64,000 nucleotides of DNA. Origin: a bacterium (GTDB lineage: Bacteria; Patescibacteriota; Minisyncoccia; Phycocordibacterales; UBA5272). The notes beneath the pieces were generated by a model. That model did not search any database and had not been told where the DNA came from. It saw only the letters and a list, made by a program, of their open reading frames with translations. This document shows, in pieces, positions 3,984-27,357 of the stretch; position 1 is the stretch's first letter; the number at the start of each line of letters is the position of its first letter. Position numbers and translations under genes: made by a program. The stretch lies in contig JAHFNB010000001.1 in assembly GCA_023267595.1 (NCBI GenBank), positions 8,837-72,836 of the forward strand, read 5' to 3'.

Positions 3984-5081
3984 ATGATGAAGAAAAAAGT
4001 TGCAAAACCGCCAAAAACAGTAGGAACACGAGAATCTAACGAAAAAGGAATGAGATCTGGTAATTCAGATGCATTGTTACGAGAAATACAAAATAAATTT
4101 GGTGAAGGATCAATGATGAAATTAGGAAGTGCACCGAAAGTTGATGTTGGTGTTGTTCCTACAGGATCACTTGGATTAGATGCTGCTCTTGGCGTTGGAG
4201 GATTACCTCGCGGAAGAATTGTAGAGATCTTTGGCCCAGAATCATCCGGTAAGACAACACTGACGCTCCACGTCATTGCAGAAGCACAAAAACTTGGGGG
4301 TATCTGTGCGTTTATTGATGCAGAACATGCAATGGACCCAGAATATGCCAAAAAACTTGGAGTAAATATAAATGAATTACTTATCTCTCAACCAGATAAT
4401 GGTGAACAAGCCCTTGAAATTGCAGAATCAATAGTACGAAGTGGAAAGGTAGATGTACTTGTTATTGACTCAGTCGCAGCACTTACACCAAAAGATGAAA
4501 TAGAAGGAGACATGGGAGCACAACATGTTGGAAAGCAAGCACGCCTCATGTCACAAGCACTTCGAAAATTAACTGCGATTGCTCATCGTTCACAAACAGT
4601 TATTATTTTTATCAATCAAATTCGTATGCAAATCGGTGTGATGTTTGGAAATCCAGAAACAACTCCAGGTGGAAAGGCACTTAAGTTCTACTCTTCTGTT
4701 CGCCTCGATATTCGTAAAATTGCTCAGATTAAAAAAGGAGATGATGTTGTTGGTGCTCGTACAAAAGTAAAAGTTGTAAAAAATAAAGTTGCAGCCCCTT
4801 TTAAAACAACTGAATTTGATATTATGTACAACGAAGGTATTTCTCGTGAGGGAGAACTTCTCGCACTTGGTGAAAAGTTTAAACTTGTGCAAAAAACAGG
4901 AAGCAGTTATACCTATGGAGATGAAAAACTAGGTCGTGGGTATGATGCTGCGCGTACATATTTACGAGAAAATAAAAAAGTTGGTGCTAAACTAACAAAA
5001 GAAATAGAAAAATTATTAGTAAGTGGTGCACTTTCATATTCTGGTTCTGTAGATCCAGAAGAAAATGAGCAACCAGAATAA
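3984..5081 (+). CDS. recA: recombinase RecA
   Basis: [36 protein letters not shown], full RecA core; ~25-aa N-terminal extension. Confidence 0.95.
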
Positions 5082-5434: not shown

Positions 5435-6034
5435 TTGGAAAATCCTATGGCAAAACTTGATTATAATGAAATAAAACCTAGAAAATACATCGTTTATAAT
5501 GATGAACCTTTTGAAATACTTGAGTCTCACGTAGCACGTACCCAACAGAGAAAACCACAAAATCAGGTAAAGATGAGAAATATGCTAAATGGAAAAGTAA
5601 TTCCTGGCACTTTTTATGCATCTGACACTGCAGATGAAGCAGATATTATAAAACGTGAAGCAAAATTCATCTATGCAAGTCGTGGAGAATATTGGTTCTG
5701 TGACCCACATGATGCAAAAAATAGATATACAATACCTGAAGATATTCTAGGGAATGCAACAAAATATTTGAAGGCAGACACAATTGTCGATTTGATGATT
5801 TTTGAATATGATGACGAAGAAAAAATAATTGGTGTAACTCTTCCAATCAAAATGACTTTCACTGTAAAAGAAGCACCTCCTGCAATCAGAGGAAATACTT
5901 CTTCTGGTGGGAACAAACTAGTGACCCTTGAAACTGGTGCACAGATTACAACACCACTGTTTATTGAAACAGGAGAAAAGATTATTGTAAACACAGAAAC
6001 TGGAGAATACGTTGAACGTGCACCTAAGAACTAA
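5435..6034 (+). CDS. efp: elongation factor P
   Basis: KOW-like N-terminus, C-terminal TTPLFIETGEKIIVNTETGEYVERA matches EF-P domain III. Confidence 0.85.
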   Translation: MENPMAKLDYNEIKPRKYIVYNDEPFEILESHVARTQQRKPQNQVKMRNMLNGKVIPGTFYASDTADEADIIKREAKFIYASRGEYWFCDPHDAKNRYTIPEDILGNATKYLKADTIVDLMIFEYDDEEKIIGVTLPIKMTFTVKEAPPAIRGNTSSGGNKLVTLETGAQITTPLFIETGEKIIVNTETGEYVERAPKN

Positions 6035-6056
6035 CTCTAGTTTACTTTAATCTATA

Positions 6057-6160
6057 ATTATTCCAGATACGCGAAGTCTAGAGATTTTTGGAAGAAGACG
6101 TACATATACTAGTACGGCGACTGAGAAAAATCTCGTAGCGACAAAGTAGATGGGATGATT
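6057..6160. repeat. ~103-bp intergenic repeat element, copy 1
   Basis: ~93% identical to 19146..19248; contains nested inverted repeats gagattttt/aaaaatctc and cgtac/gtacg. Confidence 0.6.
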
Positions 6161-8900
6161 ATAGATTAAAGTTGTATTTTTTGAGTATTTCTGACTCCAC
6201 TTCTTCCTTTGGTCTTCCATACGTTAAATAACTTAATTCTTTCAGAGAATCGATTCGTGACATATCCCCTATCTTTGGTGGTAACGTAACAATATCAAAT
6301 GGTTTTCTTGGTTCACCATTAACAAGCATTTTTATATATGCATGGTAGTTTTCTATCTTCATGATATCTCCTGCAGTAAATGTAGGTGCAAATTGTTGCT
6401 CGAGATACTGTGCATCGTCTCCTCCTACACGAAATACGGCAAGTGATCCAACATTTCCAAATACTGCACCTTTTATATCTTCTGGTAATTGTGCAATGTA
6501 TTGATGTGCTACTGAAAGAGATAATCTGTACTTGCGTGCTTCAGATAAAATACTTGCGATACTTGGTGTCGTCACATTTTGGAATTCATCAATATACAAG
6601 AAAAAATCTGGTCGCTCTGTTGCGTTCACACGTGACATTGCTGCTTGAGATAATTTACCCACCAAGATAAGTCCAAGCAAATGAGAATTAATATCTCCAA
6701 GTCTTCCTTTTGAGAGATTTACTAGAAAAATCTTTTTCGTATCCATAATTTCTCTAAAATTAAAAGCAGATTTTTCCTGTGCAATAATCGGCCTCATAAT
6801 ATCATTTGACATAAACACATCAAACTTACTGTTAACATACTGTGTCCAGTTGGAGAGACCTTGCTCCCCTGTTGTTTTCTCTGCATTTTGCCAAAATTGT
6901 AAAAGAAGTGGATTTTTTGTTTTTGATAATTTGTAATCTCTGAAATCTTTATCAGAAAATACTCGTGATATTTCCAAAAGTGTATTTCCACTTTCTGGAT
7001 GTTCCATAACAAGAAGTGCTGCATTTCTAAAATATGATTCAAATCCTGGACCGCCGGAGACTTTCATATCAAATAATTTATTGAAAATGCCGAGTAATTC
7101 ATTAACCACAAATGTCTTTTGTTCGGGAAAATTCTTATCATATTCAAGCATATTTAATCCCATTGGACGCTCTATATAACTCGGATCAAAGTAAATGACA
7201 TCTTTGGTGCGCGCAGGTGGGATATGTGACAAAATATCTTGAATATCAGATCCATGAGGATCGATAAAGCAACACCCTTCCCCATTTTCAATATCTTGAA
7301 TAATCATATTTTTCAAGATAGATGTCTTTCCTGTTCCTGTTTGACCAATAACGTATAAATGTCTCATTCTATCCTCACGAGCAAAATGTATCGTTTGTTT
7401 TTGATCACGGAAATTATTTATACCAAGTACAATTCCTTCTGTTGGCATATCCATTGGGGCTTGGGCTGCTTTTTGTAACCTGACATTTGCCACATCTTTT
7501 GTCTGCATTGGAAAATGAAATACTGATGCGAGTTCAGAGATGTTAAGTGGGTAACTTTCATCTTCATTCCAAAGACGATATGAAAAGCGGTGAAGCAAGG
7601 CTTTTTGTTTTCTCCCATCTACTTCTTCCCACACAATACTATTTCCTCCAACAAGAGAAAACTGTGCGAACGCATTCTCCAAATCAGAACGTATTGCTTG
7701 TGCACGTGCAAAGTCTGCGGCTGAAGCAATAATACGAATATTTGTTTCAACAATTGTCTTTGCTAATTTTTCTTGTACATATTTCATTGCATTTTCTTCT
7801 ACCAATGATGGTTTCTTTTCTTTTTCCTTCTCTAATTGTTCTTTTGTTTTTGATGCTGAAAACATTTCACCAAGCACATGAAATGTTTCTTTAAGTGTGC
7901 TTTGTTTATCGATTACTCGTTTGAGTGTTTCTCCTTTTCGTAAATCCTCGAGCATATCACCGTATCGTTTTGCAAAGACATCTCCCGATGGACGTATGAG
8001 TAACTGTAGTGCAAGTCCTTCATTATCTTTTGCAATTTTTGTAAATGTTGAAAGAATAAGAGACATTGGATCGGCTTCCATGTTTTCATAGGTTTTTATA
8101 GGTAATGCAGGATGCGTACTTGCCTTAGCATACGAAGCAGCCGTGACTGCATGACTATGAAAAATATTATAATCATCTTTACACTCACGAACTTGTGCAG
8201 TTGGAAATACACCTAACACCACTTTTTCAAATAACGCCGCATAATCAATGTGTATTGCACAATAAAATGATGTCGTCGTAGTTCCGTTTGCTACACCCAG
8301 TTCAAGGGTATAATAATTCTTCTCTTTATTTGTTGCATCACTTGCGAGTGCCTGCATGGATGCATACCACTGTTCCATAAGTGCCATCATTTCCTTCATA
8401 CTCTTCACATTTCCCTCTGTTCCTTCTGGGAGTATCACTTCAAACAACTTCATATGAAGTGCTTTCCACTCATCTTTTGCAAGATTATTATCCATCACAT
8501 GACCAGAAAGAAGATACTGTACTAAGAATCTTTCAAAATCATCTTCCACTTCTGGATCATTTAATTCTTGCGCCATAATAAAGGCATTTTTCACCCCTTT
8601 ATCTGCCATAACTTGAGCAAGCATAGAAACTTGAGCATCAGTCTCTCGTGGAGATAACCATTCAAGCAATCTGTGTTTCTCTCCACTTGTTAATTGCACT
8701 TGTGGTGCAAGTATTTTTTCTTCTGGAACTTCTCTATAATCACGAACCACTTCACGAGCATGATCACTCTCTTTGAATCGATTTTCGAATCCTTTTGCAC
8801 GCTCAATTTTATTCGCAAGTTGCAAGCGTAAGTGTGCCACCTCTTCTTCAGGAGTAGTAAGCAGTGTATCCATACTGTACAGTTTACAGTTTACGGTCAA
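6159..8900 (-). CDS. FtsK/HerA/VirD4-superfamily P-loop ATPase (T4SS coupling-protein-like) with unknown ~450-aa N-terminal domain
   Basis: Walker A VIGQTGTGKTS, IDPHG, FDPSYIERPMGLNML, Walker B FFLYIDEFQN, RKYRLSLSVAHQYIAQL; no TM segment; starts 23 nt after map stop. Confidence 0.55.
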   Translation of the reverse strand: MTVNCKLYSMDTLLTTPEEEVAHLRLQLANKIERAKGFENRFKESDHAREVVRDYREVPEEKILAPQVQLTSGEKHRLLEWLSPRETDAQVSMLAQVMADKGVKNAFIMAQELNDPEVEDDFERFLVQYLLSGHVMDNNLAKDEWKALHMKLFEVILPEGTEGNVKSMKEMMALMEQWYASMQALASDATNKEKNYYTLELGVANGTTTTSFYCAIHIDYAALFEKVVLGVFPTAQVRECKDDYNIFHSHAVTAASYAKASTHPALPIKTYENMEADPMSLILSTFTKIAKDNEGLALQLLIRPSGDVFAKRYGDMLEDLRKGETLKRVIDKQSTLKETFHVLGEMFSASKTKEQLEKEKEKKPSLVEENAMKYVQEKLAKTIVETNIRIIASAADFARAQAIRSDLENAFAQFSLVGGNSIVWEEVDGRKQKALLHRFSYRLWNEDESYPLNISELASVFHFPMQTKDVANVRLQKAAQAPMDMPTEGIVLGINNFRDQKQTIHFAREDRMRHLYVIGQTGTGKTSILKNMIIQDIENGEGCCFIDPHGSDIQDILSHIPPARTKDVIYFDPSYIERPMGLNMLEYDKNFPEQKTFVVNELLGIFNKLFDMKVSGGPGFESYFRNAALLVMEHPESGNTLLEISRVFSDKDFRDYKLSKTKNPLLLQFWQNAEKTTGEQGLSNWTQYVNSKFDVFMSNDIMRPIIAQEKSAFNFREIMDTKKIFLVNLSKGRLGDINSHLLGLILVGKLSQAAMSRVNATERPDFFLYIDEFQNVTTPSIASILSEARKYRLSLSVAHQYIAQLPEDIKGAVFGNVGSLAVFRVGGDDAQYLEQQFAPTFTAGDIMKIENYHAYIKMLVNGEPRKPFDIVTLPPKIGDMSRIDSLKELSYLTYGRPKEEVESEILKKYNFNL

Positions 8901-10355: not shown

Positions 10356-11009
10356 TTATACTCCGTAGACTTTCTTCAATGTTTCTTGATCACCCTTTAA
10401 TCGTCTTCCTTCTTTAATGTTTTTATATAGTTTATATCCACTGTAAGCCAAGTAACTTGCTCCTGCGACAATAGGCAACACTCCAAATGTACTAGCAGCC
10501 AATATACCAGTACCTGTAACGACTCCTGTACTACCTGTTGCTAGAGTGCTAATAAATCCTGGAACTAATGATGCATTTACTAATATATAACCCATACCGG
10601 CTACAATAACTGGTAATGTAACTGCTTCCATTGCACCAAAGGAAGAAGATGTACTGGTAGATTTTATAATAGTCTCTGCTTCTCCATAATTTTTTCCCTG
10701 AATATTTGGATATTTTTGAAGAAGTTCATTATGTGCAACATCACTTTCATTTGGTGTAATTGGTGATACTACCTCTTTTTTCTCTGGAGTATTCATTGCT
10801 ACTGGCGTAGCAATTTGTTCAGGAGGTTTTGAGAGTGTTTCAGTTAATTTTTCTACACGCATTGTATCTTCTGACTTTGGTAATTCTGGAATTGGTGTCT
10901 CGAACTTTGCATCTAGGTTTTGTAGAAGAATTGCGGGAGATTCTACTTGTGCTGCCTCTTCAACAGATACTGGCTCAAAATCAATACTATTATTTGGTTT
11001 ATTTTCCAT
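10356..11009 (-). CDS. glycine-zipper membrane protein, paralog B of tandem pair
   Basis: N-terminal MENKPNNSIDFEPVSVEEAAQVESPAI identical to paralog A; acidic middle; Gly/Ala/Ser-rich C-terminal TM segments; start set at conserved MENK. Confidence 0.55.
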   Translation of the reverse strand: MENKPNNSIDFEPVSVEEAAQVESPAILLQNLDAKFETPIPELPKSEDTMRVEKLTETLSKPPEQIATPVAMNTPEKKEVVSPITPNESDVAHNELLQKYPNIQGKNYGEAETIIKSTSTSSSFGAMEAVTLPVIVAGMGYILVNASLVPGFISTLATGSTGVVTGTGILAASTFGVLPIVAGASYLAYSGYKLYKNIKEGRRLKGDQETLKKVYGV

Positions 11010-11016
11010 ATTTTTA

Positions 11017-11667
11017 TTAAGCAAAAACTTTTCTCGCACGATTCGTATTAATCATATTTTTTATCTTACGCACACCCTGATATAAAAGATATGCTGCACC
11101 ACCTACTGCAATAACTGGGCCGACTACAGAAGTAGCCCCCAACATAGTCATTTCAATTGTACCACTTGTTAAAAGAGCAGAAACTCCAGATGACAAAACC
11201 CCTTGTCCTGCAGAATTTGCCGCCGCAAGTCCAAGAAGAGACAACATTCCACCACCAATCACTGTAACACCAGATACAGTGGATTTTTCTTTTATATCCA
11301 ACCTTTCAAAATCTAGACCAGATTTTACTGTATTTTCTGGTGTGTCAGATGGACCCATTTTTCTTCCATAATCACCATAACTACTCATAAGTGAATTCAA
11401 AACTTGATTTTCTTTTACTTGACCTTCAACTGTATTTTCTTCACTCTTAATTTCTGGAGATGTAGGTAATTTTTCTTGTAGTATAAGTGAATCTTTTATT
11501 TCTTGAGCACGAATTATATCTTCTGGTTTTTGATCTACAGACTTTGATACTTCGTATTTTGCATCTAAATCTTCCGGAGGAATTGCAGGAGATTCTACTT
11601 TTGCTGCTTCTTCAACAGATACTGGCTCAAAATCAATACTATTATTTGGTTTATTTTCCATATCCAA
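11017..11667 (-). CDS. glycine-zipper membrane protein, paralog A of tandem pair
   Basis: same N-terminal 27 aa as paralog B, ~75 nt near-identical at DNA level; C-terminal GGGMLSLLGLAAANSAGQG...GPVIAVGGAAYLLY. Confidence 0.55.
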   Translation of the reverse strand: MDMENKPNNSIDFEPVSVEEAAKVESPAIPPEDLDAKYEVSKSVDQKPEDIIRAQEIKDSLILQEKLPTSPEIKSEENTVEGQVKENQVLNSLMSSYGDYGRKMGPSDTPENTVKSGLDFERLDIKEKSTVSGVTVIGGGMLSLLGLAAANSAGQGVLSSGVSALLTSGTIEMTMLGATSVVGPVIAVGGAAYLLYQGVRKIKNMINTNRARKVFA

Positions 11668-16938: not shown

Positions 16939-18303
16939 TTACCAAGCAATCGGCATTGCATTTCCTGTAACTGTTGTCTGTGCAGTTCCTACTACTTGTC
17001 CAGATGGATTTGTAATATTTGCAATAAATACAACATCTTGTTTATAGTACGTACTATTTGTAATCATTGCAGGAATCTCCTGTTGAGCACTATTAAGCGT
17101 AAATGGCATTGCAAACTCCTGACCACATGGAATACCTGCTACGGTTACTTGTACATTAGCAATAGGACATACTGCGTGAATACGTAATGAGTATTGACCA
17201 TAAATACTTGCATCATAGTAATTACTTGCAGGAATGTTGATGTAAAGTCTGAATAATTCACCAGAGTTTACTGGGTTCTTATTTGCAGAGATAACTACAT
17301 TACCATAGAAAGAATATGGACGTTTGATAAAGATTGGAGAAACGGCTGCGCGGAATGTAGAGGTAACACCTGCAATATCCGTAAGAGGAGTTGTGATAAC
17401 AATACGATATGAACCTTGAGCATAATTTTGTGCACATGATCCAGTACAAAGATAATCTAGAATATCTTTTGTAAGAGTAAACGTAGCAGAATTACCACTT
17501 GTTGTCATAATGTACTTACTTTGTCCAGAACTATTTTCAAGGAGAATCTGATACTGACTCGCATTAATATTATTTGTAGTCCATGTAACATTTACCGTAT
17601 CTCCTTCATTGTAATGACTGTCAGTTCCTGGTGAAGAAATAGAGAGTGTCCCTGGTTGTGGAATAAGACCATAGGTATATCCAATGTTTGGACTGTAGAC
17701 AATATTTGTACCATATACAAACGATGTATTTGTTGTTGCAGGTGTAATTACATTTGTCGTAATTGGATTGTATGAATTATATGCGGTATAGTTTGAACCT
17801 GTTGTTCCGTACGTATACGTTGGATTATTTGAGTTAGTGATGATAGTCGATGTGATATTTTTTACATATGGATCATATGTATCTACAACTGTTGTACCTG
17901 CTGAATATCCATAATCATAATTTGAATATGATGTATTGTATGTATTTGAATTGTAGGTATTTCCATTACAAAGTTGTGCATTGATTAGATCACGTGTTGA
18001 TTGTCCTACTGTACCTGTTGTAAGAAGACCACTATTTGATTGAAAAGACACAACTGCAGAATACGTAGCCGGACCAAAGTAACCATTTGGTGTTGCATAG
18101 AGATAACCACGTCCTGCTAGAAAGTTTTGAAGTGTGTATACATCTTCATTTTCAGAACCAGACTGAAGTGTACGAGTGATAGATGTACCACATCCATAAT
18201 TATTATAATCGGTAAAAATACCTGCAAAGGTAAATGTTGGAGTACTGAGGAAAAATCCCACAAATCCAAGGAGAAAAATACTGTTTTTGATTCCTGTTTT
18301 CAT
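16939..18303 (-). CDS. secreted protein: signal peptide + peptidoglycan-binding (PG_binding_1-like) domain + N/T/Y/S-rich low-complexity linker + Cys-containing C-terminal domain
   Basis: N-terminal MKTGIKNSIFLLGFVGFFLSTPTFTFA; DVYTLQNFLAGRGYL...GPATYSAVVSFQ matches PG-binding helix pattern; ~120-aa N/Y/T/S-rich repeat-like region. Confidence 0.6.
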   Translation of the reverse strand: MKTGIKNSIFLLGFVGFFLSTPTFTFAGIFTDYNNYGCGTSITRTLQSGSENEDVYTLQNFLAGRGYLYATPNGYFGPATYSAVVSFQSNSGLLTTGTVGQSTRDLINAQLCNGNTYNSNTYNTSYSNYDYGYSAGTTVVDTYDPYVKNITSTIITNSNNPTYTYGTTGSNYTAYNSYNPITTNVITPATTNTSFVYGTNIVYSPNIGYTYGLIPQPGTLSISSPGTDSHYNEGDTVNVTWTTNNINASQYQILLENSSGQSKYIMTTSGNSATFTLTKDILDYLCTGSCAQNYAQGSYRIVITTPLTDIAGVTSTFRAAVSPIFIKRPYSFYGNVVISANKNPVNSGELFRLYINIPASNYYDASIYGQYSLRIHAVCPIANVQVTVAGIPCGQEFAMPFTLNSAQQEIPAMITNSTYYKQDVVFIANITNPSGQVVGTAQTTVTGNAMPIAW

Positions 18304-18412: not shown

Positions 18413-18973
18413 TTACGCCTTCTTAAACGGAATACCAATAAGTTCAAAAAATGCTGTCGCCTCCTCTTTTGTCTTTGCAGTTGTTCCAAGAGTAATTGCC
18501 ATTCCAAATATATCCTTTAATTCTTCATCTTTAATTTCTGGGAAAATAGTATGTTCTTTGATACCAAATGTCATATTTCCAATATTATCCACTGATGTCT
18601 TATTGAGTCCACGAAAGTCCTTAGTACGAGGAAGAGATACGTTTAATACCTTGTCTAAGAATCCAAACATACGTGCACCACGAAGTGTTACTGCAACACC
18701 GATTGGATCTCCGATACGTGTCTTAAATGAAGCAACGGCTTGCTTTGCTTTGCGAAGTGTTGGACGTTGTCCTGTAATCTTTGTAAGGCGATCAATTACG
18801 AGATCATTTCGCTTACGATCTTTCTTCATTGCAGTTCCTGTTGCGACAGAAACACTTACCTTTACTAAGTGAGGTGATGCAAGTTTATTTTTATATCCGA
18901 ATTGCTTTGCTAATGTTGCATACGCAAGTTCCTGCTTTTCTTTTACTCCTATAAATTCACTTTTCTTTGCCAT
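18413..18973 (-). CDS. rplE: 50S ribosomal protein L5
   Basis: ITGQRPTLRKAKQAVASFKTRIGDPIGVAVTLRG... Confidence 0.9.
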   Translation of the reverse strand: MAKKSEFIGVKEKQELAYATLAKQFGYKNKLASPHLVKVSVSVATGTAMKKDRKRNDLVIDRLTKITGQRPTLRKAKQAVASFKTRIGDPIGVAVTLRGARMFGFLDKVLNVSLPRTKDFRGLNKTSVDNIGNMTFGIKEHTIFPEIKDEELKDIFGMAITLGTTAKTKEEATAFFELIGIPFKKA

Positions 18974-19105
18974 ATATTTTTTGTGTAAGCACGATTGGTC
19001 TCTTTCGAGAACGTCGTACGCGCTTATCTTGCGGATAGATTCTATCTCGCGTTATTAATTGGTAGACCTATACTCTACTATAAAATTAATACTTTGTAAA
19101 ATAAA

Positions 19106-19130
19106 GGGCGATGCTTGTAGCATCGCCCTT
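19106..19130. terminator. palindromic hairpin (agggcgatgcttgtagcatcgccct) between rplX and rplE
   Basis: perfect 10-bp stem; near-identical core to hairpin at 57394..57422. Confidence 0.4.
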
Positions 19131-19145
19131 TATAAAAAGTAAGAA

Positions 19146-19248
19146 ATTATTCCAGATAGGCGAAGCCTGGAGATTTTTGGAAGAAGACGTACACACTAGT
19201 ACGGCGACTGAGAAAAATCTCGTAGCGACAAAATAGATGAGATGATTT
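19146..19248. repeat. ~103-bp intergenic repeat element, copy 2
   Basis: ~93% identical to 6057..6160, same orientation; lies between rplX stop and rplE start. Confidence 0.6.
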
Positions 19249-19483
19249 ATGACTTTTTAACTTTCTTTTCGGCAAGTTTCACATTTGATGCGTCCATTGG
19301 CATTGCTACATCTATAATTCCACCTTTCTCCCCTGCTTTCTTTGGGCGAGTATGCTTCTTCATAAGGTTAAGTCCTTCAAGGACTACTTTATTTTCTGCG
19401 CGTAAAACACGAGCAACAGTCCCTGACTTTCCTTTTTCTTTACCTGCAATCACTATTACTTTATCTCCTTTTTTTACTTGCAT
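19247..19483 (-). CDS. rplX: 50S ribosomal protein L24
   Basis: KOW motif MQVKKGDKVIVIAGKEKGKSGTV. Confidence 0.9.
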   Translation of the reverse strand: MQVKKGDKVIVIAGKEKGKSGTVARVLRAENKVVLEGLNLMKKHTRPKKAGEKGGIIDVAMPMDASNVKLAEKKVKKS

Positions 19484-27278: not shown

Positions 27279-27357
27279 AAAATGTTTTATTATATTTTGT
27301 ATCTTAAAAAAGATAACATTGTAGCGACAAAGTAGTTCGCCAAAATATTTTTTTAAA

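Follow-up and report, generated by a model that had tools for sequence, protein, structure and literature searches.

The window examined here, a stretch of 64,000 nt that L5 homologues place in the Paceibacterota/Parcubacteria, contains one short element at two distant positions, and this raises the question of what the element is and why it lies where it does. The initial annotation described two same-orientation copies, about 93 % identical, with a 15 bp fragment near the 3′ end of fusA, and left three candidates standing: a structured small RNA, a repeat of the REP/MITE type, and a cis-regulatory element concerned with attenuation or processing. The gene context that it gave is confirmed: one copy (copy A) lies in the convergent gap between efp and an ATPase gene, the other (copy B) between rplX and rplE, and the fragment beside fusA. 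The features of the window are as follows.

5435-6034, + strand: efp, convergent with the ATPase gene
6044-6172, + strand: full hairpin of copy A, with its core at 6056-6160; covariance model score 127.9 bits
6044-6055 and 6161-6172: outer stem of copy A, in which ACTTTAATCTAT pairs with ATAGATTAAAGT; locus-specific (inverted repeat I9)
6159-8900, − strand: VirD4/TraG-like ATPase gene, with its stop codon (6159-6161) within the 3′ arm of copy A
18413-18973, − strand: rplE; copy B lies between rplX and rplE
19096-19125, no strand assigned: GC-rich hairpin GGGCGATGC..GCATCGCCC, the rplX terminator adjoining copy B
19133-19259, + strand: full hairpin of copy B, with its core at 19145-19247; covariance model score 121.6 bits
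19133-19140 and 19252-19259: outer stem of copy B, in which TAAAAAGT pairs with ACTTTTTA
19247-19483, − strand: rplX (L24), 78 aa, with its stop codon (19247-19249) within the 3′ arm of copy B
27321-27343, + strand: decayed third copy, 3′ part only, GTAGCGACAAAGTAGTTCGCCAA
27358-29502, − strand: fusA; the remnant lies 15-37 nt downstream of its stop codon

The description of the two copies is borne out. Their cores have the same orientation and differ by six substitutions and a 2 nt indel in the apical loop, an identity of about 94 %; the repeat finder reported the pair as blocks D6 (53 nt, 96 %) and D7 (49 nt, 94 %). In the window, 23-mers taken from each half of the element occur in copies A and B only (chance expectation 0). 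The fragment near fusA is the 15-mer GTAGCGACAAAGTAG, which is found at 6135, at 27321 and, with one mismatch, at 19222. It is expected 0.07 times by chance in the window, and three matches were reached in none of 100 shuffles. A scan of the window with the covariance model described below, filters off, returned two full copies and no more, the weak matches being ordinary terminator hairpins, and the load of the window is thus two copies and one remnant. The nested inverted repeats that had been annotated, GAGATTTTT/AAAAATCTC and CGTAC/GTACG, are both present in the copies, but the main closing stem had been overlooked. This is an outermost stem, AATTATTCCAG/..GGGATGATT, extended by 8-12 nt of locus-specific flank. 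Also overlooked were the stop codon inside the element and the fact that the folding strand is antisense. At copy A the last codons of the ATPase gene (..YNFNL*) are the 3′ arm of the outer stem, and close ATPase homologues end ..KYNL* or ..KYQL*. In its folding sense copy A lies in the 3′ flank of efp and is followed by TGTATTTTTT. At copy B the end of the rplX ORF, ..AAAAAGTCATAA, falls inside the element arm. The + strand of copy A folds at −50.1 kcal/mol (z −9.5) and its reverse complement at −37.3; for copy B the values are −33.7 (z −5.8) and −23.3. In the window there is also a direct repeat, D1, of 178 nt and 79 % identity (10834-11011 and 11486-11663, 652 nt apart).

The element is not confined to the window. 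An exact 20-mer from the core was found at 11 loci in a species-representative genome collection, all in metagenome-assembled genomes labelled Gracilibacteria, Paceibacterota, Nomurabacteria, Saccharibacteria or unclassified. A second pattern, from another part of the core, retrieved 116 metagenome loci, in many of which the covariance model found a match; both patterns sit in the core, and the conservation of those two segments is partly by construction. The model was built from the first 13 sequences and then found divergent copies in the same loci, in one of which the helix GAGATTTTT/AAAAATCTC is swapped for CCCTGTTTT/AAAACAGGG. It gave 59 matches scoring 55 bits or more, of which 56 are distinct. 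Together, the two pattern scans and the covariance model yielded about 60 distinct relatives in Patescibacteria, with looser relatives elsewhere. Copies can be close together: there are three on one 15 kb contig and at least three on a 775 kb contig. The search for further copies that the initial annotation had proposed thus led to dozens of relatives in other genomes and metagenomes.

No known family accounts for these sequences. At the gathering score, Rfam 15 finds four tRNAs and nothing else in the whole window. At E values up to 10, the region 5950-6250 gives two chance matches to snoRNA models (E 1.3 and 2.3) only, and at E values up to 1, 15 loci with diverse variants give nothing on the element. 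The comparison with Rfam that had been suggested therefore returns no family for the window copy or for the 15 variant loci. BLAST of copy A against phage and plasmid collections gave no match, nor did BLAST of a human-gut variant against phage, plasmid and E. coli collections; an origin in any of these was rejected, three IMG/VR contigs alone having a looser relative. A human-gut contig (L071) with a distant variant of the element also matches the cspA thermoregulator at 166-514, below threshold (59.9 bits; gathering score 78), a hint that the host of this variant lies outside the CPR. A conserved peptide was rejected because the minus-strand reading frames differ between copies A and B. We found no relevant description of a CPR repeat or motif in the literature, one possibly pertinent 2026 preprint lying outside the scope of that search.

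The element folds as one long, imperfect, unbranched hairpin (a rod) of 115-135 nt with purine-rich internal loops. It consists of a conserved core of about 105 nt and a locus-specific closing stem of about 10 bp, and its GC content is 36-39 %. The first 13 sequences share this rod, and their MAFFT/RNAalifold structure agrees with the covariance model. In the alignment of the 59 matches, which is fitted to the model and hence biased towards the model's own structure, 96.1 % of cells form standard pairs, and both sides are altered in 30 of 37 pairs (352 cells); these values were reached in none of 500 shuffles. When the 3′ partners were slid by 1-3 columns, 37-49 % of cells paired and there were 44-89 double-change cells. 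The structure that the initial annotation had suspected is thus supported by compensatory change in 30 of 37 pairs, and the element has what is generally asked of a structured non-coding RNA, a conserved structure on one strand with covariation. The conserved unpaired positions are purine-rich (ACGCGAAG, GGAAGAAG, CGACUGA and CGACAAAGUAG) and are opposed as G.A, A.G, A.A and G.G. Opposed purine internal loops with tandem G.A geometry would be typical of protein-binding loops. Two GTAG motifs are conserved in the 3′ half, and the arms AATTATTCCAG../..GGGATGATT are terminal inverted repeats that differ among copies and covary. By eye, CGUAGCGACAAAGUAG resembles what we take to be the E. coli 5S rRNA sequence CGUAGCGCCGAUGGUAG. 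Derivation from 5S rRNA, tRNA or SRP RNA was rejected, there being no Rfam match and the fold being an unbranched rod. Hammerhead and hairpin ribozymes, K-turns, C/D boxes and SRP were set aside by eye, as their defining cores are not present and Rfam gives them no support.

This fold belongs to one strand. The given strand folds more stably than its complement in every one of the first 13 sequences, by 5-25 kcal/mol, and across the family the sense strand of the model is the more stable in 79 of 80 copies (−41.4 versus −30.3 kcal/mol). Additionally, 124 cells are of the G.U type as against 19 of the A.C type, which are G.U on the opposite strand. Deamination biases act on the gene-sense strand and would favour G.U there. 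Since deamination would give the opposite asymmetry, we read the G.U excess as selection on one strand; a mutational strand bias was rejected as its source because the known deamination biases would act on the other strand. The data show that a single strand is selected for folding and that it is the strand antisense to the abutted gene.

The geometry at gene ends is equally regular. In most of the non-redundant copies scanned, the stop of an opposite-strand ORF is no more than about 12 nt from the element 3′ end, which amounts to 56 distinct gene ends. The commonest offset is −7, where the stop codon lies on the TTA of the conserved AATTTAT. The genes abutted in this way include tuf (in four genomes), fusA, rpsL, rpsG, rpsN, rpsO, rpsR and rpsT, and also rplE, rplJ, rplK, rplX, ssb, nusG, tsf, efp, lysS, gap and typA. 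Other housekeeping genes are abutted as well, and the translation apparatus is enriched. Same-strand ORF ends near the element 5′ end are scattered like those of convergent neighbours, or are short and doubtful, and there is no convincing case of an element co-oriented with its gene among the copies scanned. Copies a few kilobases apart point in opposite directions, each following its own gene (L016, L054, L028 and L068). The orientation rule therefore follows gene polarity and not the direction of replication, and replication-coupled orientation of the IS200/IS605 kind was rejected for this reason. The left neighbour, scored at 53 copies, is co-directional with the abutted gene in 31 and convergent in 22, and in 10 copies the stop codon of the convergent left neighbour is within 40 nt.

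Pairing continues beyond the ends of the model, with a median of 5 nt compared with 1 nt in a control in which flanks were swapped. The far flank is thus an inverted copy of the last codons of the gene. The flanks of Patescibacteria-type copies are inverted and not direct repeats. These copies show no target duplication or transposase, and about 1 Mb of loci contained no autonomous partner. No recombinase or transposase gene is consistently nearby, and there is no RAYT among the abutted genes.

Comparison with close relatives shows that the element comes and goes. In three relatives, whose L5 proteins are 93 %, 91 % and 85 % identical to that of the window, the gap between rplX and rplE has no element but retains the rplX hairpin terminator and the promoter and leader of rplE. 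In the relatives rplX encodes 84-90 aa with a Lys-rich tail, compared with 78 aa in the window. At AAAAAGT the window gene ceases to follow the shared sequence, and it closes with TCA TAA within the element arm; an inverted copy, ACTTTTT, lies beyond the element, and roughly 35 nt of DNA encoding the tail is absent. As judged from these sequences, the shorter rplX tail and the stop codon in the arm coincide with the acquisition of the element. Elsewhere, a typA-like and a murF-like gene also end in ..K-S-stop on an arm AGTCAG../..TATGACT. As these genes are unrelated, the arm and the stop codon can arrive with the element. At the ATPase site, a relative whose ATPase is 83 % identical has a spacer of 32 nt between the ATPase gene and efp with an ordinary terminator alone. 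A second relative also lacks the element there, and a third has a variant copy with an outer stem, CTTTAGCT/AGCTAAAG, that matches its own last codons. Because close relatives without the element are found for both window sites, we conclude that it was acquired at each. The idea that the element had entered the loop of an older terminator or palindrome was rejected, since the empty sites (L130, L137 and L138) have no such palindrome.

The remnant at fusA matches the 3′ portion of a copy that is divergent but complete and adjoins a fragment of the fusA 3′ end in another Paceibacterota genome (L004, 5543-5659). By this comparison, 27321-27343 is a decayed copy. At the same L004 locus there are two copies (4268-4460 and 5543-5740), 1.2 kb apart, each on a fusA 3′-end fragment of 65-80 nt. 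Intact fusA is absent from that locus, which may reflect a rearrangement or co-duplication of the element and the gene end. At other loci the element appears to have stayed in place. An unusual apical hairpin and helix recur in the tuf copies of different genomes, with lineage-specific features in the core, and compensatory double changes are found among copies at the same locus, affecting 17 of 44 pairs behind tuf and 19 of 45 behind rpsN. Double changes that keep the fold behind the same gene indicate long residence at the locus under selection for the fold. The alternative is that these copies spread together with the conserved gene end.

Signals expected of an RNA expressed in the folding sense were sought around the copies of the window and the family. 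There is no sigma-70-type promoter at a fixed upstream distance in this sense in either; promoter-like pairs occur at 18 of 56 copies with scattered offsets. A U-rich tail (at least five T in the first 8 nt) follows 17 of 56 copies, and 14 of 56 on the other strand. A unidirectional terminator appears unlikely because such tails are as frequent on one strand as on the other, and a plain terminator would not need a core of about 100 nt conserved across classes. In 12 of 56 copies a separate canonical terminator comes after the element when read in the direction of the upstream gene, and in some copies, copy B included, a terminator hairpin lies directly upstream in the folding sense. Given the lack of a fixed promoter, the upstream terminators and the 31 of 53 copies with a co-directional left neighbour, the folding strand is only putatively transcribed at most copies. 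For part of the family transcription of the antisense strand is plausible, for example from the convergent efp at copy A.

These results bear on the three candidates that had been put forward at the outset. A structured repeat family is what was found. An independently transcribed small RNA is not shown, because no promoter is positionally conserved. An attenuator inside the ribosomal operon finds no support: the same rplX terminator and rplE leader are present in relatives without the element, and the operon-sense strand of the element is the weaker folder. The terminator at 19096-19125 is kept in these relatives and is separate from the element. In four of four genomes a terminator hairpin splits the spc operon between rplX and rplE, and a candidate ribosomal-protein leader of about 120 nt (18974-19095, − strand) lies between a promoter-like TTTACA-17-TAGAGT and the start of rplE. 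This leader is conserved in four related genomes (the window, L130, L132 and L134) and has no Rfam match. After rplE, in the usual place of rpsN, the window encodes a 454 aa protein with a peptidoglycan-binding domain (16939-18303, − strand), and the relatives are alike in this.

Related rods with other habits were also found. A sister family of 158 nt rods is present in dozens of near-identical copies in Ga0209429 and related metagenomes. It shares with the window element the apical module GAAGAAGNCGTA..TACGNCGACTGA and the motif GCGAAG..GAGATTTTT. Direct repeats of 3 bp (TNA) flank 19 of 23 complete copies, in several copies the duplicated trinucleotide is itself a stop codon, that of an adjacent gene in either orientation, and many contigs end within the repeat. 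This family behaves as a MITE and is clearly mobile. It was seen at L021, L025, L026, L030, L034, L039 and about 35 further loci (Ga0209429, Ga0209538 and JGI24131/24132). Its host has a higher GC content, and no autonomous partner is present in the loci examined. Three predicted viral contigs from IMG/VR (L140-L142) carry a rod of about 165 nt with the same apical module, a few nucleotides from the start of an opposite-strand gene (GGAGG..ATG). Tandem triplets with a period of 127 nt lie downstream of a KH-domain gene (L038, 4638-5006; L074, 248-616), two of the copies being identical and one diverged. In a further sub-family there is an extra hairpin between GUAGC and GACAAAGUAG (L105, 1661-1776; L028, 1009-1120; L007, 1149-1245; L139, 1005-1135).

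The data above establish the family, its fold, its strand, its geometry at gene ends, its gain and loss, and its persistence with compensatory change. The reading that we prefer, and to which we attach roughly even probability, is that the element is a structured, non-autonomous, REP/ERIC-like gene-end insertion element that is active as one strand, antisense to the gene. New copies would be rare and would most likely arise by recombination or template switching at A-rich gene ends, either of which would also account for the inverted copy of the flank; alternatively, the element may spread by transfer with the conserved gene end as a homology anchor. The rod would be retained after arrival since its single-stranded form would be useful. 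The mechanism that we tentatively favour is one in which the rod would be an RNA, made when the antisense strand is transcribed, whether within the 3′ UTR of a gene convergent with the abutted one, as with efp at copy A, or through divergent or spurious antisense transcription. A putative conserved protein may bind the rod RNA through the tandem G.A loops, and the rod RNA may end or insulate transcription entering the abutted gene; in the sense of the host gene the hairpin would be weaker and operon transcription would pass. A bolder proposal, which we regard as conceivable and hold loosely, is that the rod represents a novel class of structured nucleic acid marking the 3′ ends of core translation genes in Patescibacteria; expressed antisense and with a conserved protein partner, it would form a dispersed system that tunes or insulates translation genes in these reduced genomes, or else it would be a new single-strand-specific mobile element targeting stop codons.

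The functional form could instead be single-stranded DNA, a strand-specific site for a recombinase or HUH/Y1 transposase in the manner of attC or RAYT systems, in which case the strand-specific enzyme would set the orientation and put the element at gene ends. Folding is indeed strand-specific and tolerant of G.T-type pairs, no promoter for the folding strand was found, the 158 nt sister family is clearly mobile, and the position at ORF ends over the stop codon with an antisense folded strand matches what is described for attC (PMC2727003). Set against this, copies a few kilobases apart are opposed, so that replication direction does not set the orientation, and the folding strand is the template strand, which transcription and co-directional replication would normally leave unexposed. 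Additionally, conservation is in the centre and variation at the ends, where attC and transposon ends show the reverse; genes for a recombinase or transposase are not consistently nearby, and compensatory evolution at fixed loci is not expected of a purely selfish site. We therefore regard a single-stranded DNA site as possible and rather improbable. We think it unlikely that each copy is an independent gene for a small RNA of about 130 nt, equipped with a promoter and a terminator and acting either in trans or, as an antisense RNA, in cis on the abutted gene, so that the copies together would make up a dispersed antisense regulon of translation genes. The covariation is as good as that of real RNA families, the conserved, purine-rich internal loops have tandem G.A geometry, the rod looks like a long antisense stem-loop, and the translation apparatus is enriched among the abutted genes; but promoter-like pairs are scattered (18 of 56 copies, none at a fixed distance), the outer stem is locus-specific and overlaps coding sequence, and presence varies among close relatives. 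Very unlikely, in our view, is a hairpin acting in the 3′ UTR of the gene-sense transcript as a block to 3′-5′ exonuclease, an RNase III site or a means of coupling to translation termination. In operons such as rplX-rplE the element and the upstream gene certainly share a transcript, the stop codon lies in the stem base, and REPs are located chiefly downstream of coding regions, many of them being regarded as RNA elements (PMC3733652). The gene-sense strand is nevertheless the weaker folder in 79 of 80 copies, and on it the wobbles become A.C mismatches (19 cells of the G.U type versus 124), the opposite of what selection on an RNA would give. As deamination would favour G.U on that same strand, the asymmetry is unlikely to be mutational. 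Simple local duplication or chance similarity fits the finding of only two full copies in the 64 kb window with filters off, and the initial annotation had held duplication to be the likelier account should further copies, structure and covariation all be lacking. The dozens of relatives elsewhere, the shared words expected 0 to 0.07 times by chance and the very strong covariation exclude local duplication and leave this account with a negligible probability.

By analogy, the function would be most like that of ERIC, REP/REPIN, Correia or RPE-type small palindromic repeats, and the geometry most like that of attC. ERIC/IRU elements (127 bp imperfect palindromes) are alike in size, in forming a single long imperfect hairpin, in being present in a handful to tens of copies, in occupying transcribed intergenic space and in differing between relatives in their presence at a site. 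ERIC is known only from Enterobacteriaceae and Vibrio, and both orientations occur. The rod element, in contrast, has a core conserved over several Patescibacteria classes, a strict antisense orientation, no target duplication and a locus-specific outer stem copied from the gene end. REP/BIME and REPIN sequences are likewise extragenic palindromes, lying mainly beyond gene 3′ ends where the flanking ORFs are co-directional or convergent (PMC3733652; PMC3116915), and the REP/REPIN-RAYT (Y1/HUH) systems described there are alike in the maintained hairpin, the proposed single-strand recognition and the GTAG motif. REPs are 20-40 bp, GC-rich and species- or genus-specific, whereas the rod element has an AT-rich core of about 105 nt found across classes at low copy number.

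The attC site often overlaps the stop codon. Its ends (R′′/R′) are conserved and its centre is variable, and it occurs in cassette arrays beside an intI gene and follows accessory genes. In the rod element it is the centre that is conserved and the ends that vary, and the element lies beside core genes in their normal operon order with no array; by its defining features it is not an attC site. The likeness is in being an imperfect palindrome of similar length at the ORF 3′ end with an antisense folded strand, and in attC only the bottom strand recombines, the folded single strand being antisense to the ORF (PMC2727003). Of the MITEs (IS5/PIF-Harbinger type, with TNA duplications), the 158 nt Ga0209429 family has all the hallmarks. 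Window-type copies have terminal inverted repeats and no direct target-site duplication, and they differ from MITEs in their inverted flanks, strict orientation, low copy number and compensatory evolution in place. Rickettsia palindromic elements (RPEs) are alike as small palindromic insertions in a reduced genome that can join coding sequence. RPEs insert in frame inside genes and are genus-specific; the rod element, unlike them, touches the last few codons only. Among small structured dispersed repeats the family, which is absent from Rfam, is unusual in its cross-class core, its strict antisense abutment on stop codons of core genes and its gene-derived outer stem.

A large part of bacterial diversity belongs to the Patescibacteria (CPR), which are mostly uncultured and have tiny genomes with little non-coding DNA. 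With so little non-coding DNA, a core of about 105 nt that is conserved across classes is unexpected. The covariation is of riboswitch grade, and the geometry is fixed at the stop codons of tuf, fusA, ribosomal-protein genes, ssb, nusG and other genes. If the rod is an RNA, it would be a new and widespread class with a putative protein partner. If it is a single-stranded DNA site, it would belong to a strand-specific recombination or mobility system that reshapes gene ends, as with the shortened L24 of the window. Under either reading the covariance model would allow the element to be annotated. The element accounts for some of the contig breaks and odd C-terminal variation in CPR metagenome-assembled genomes.
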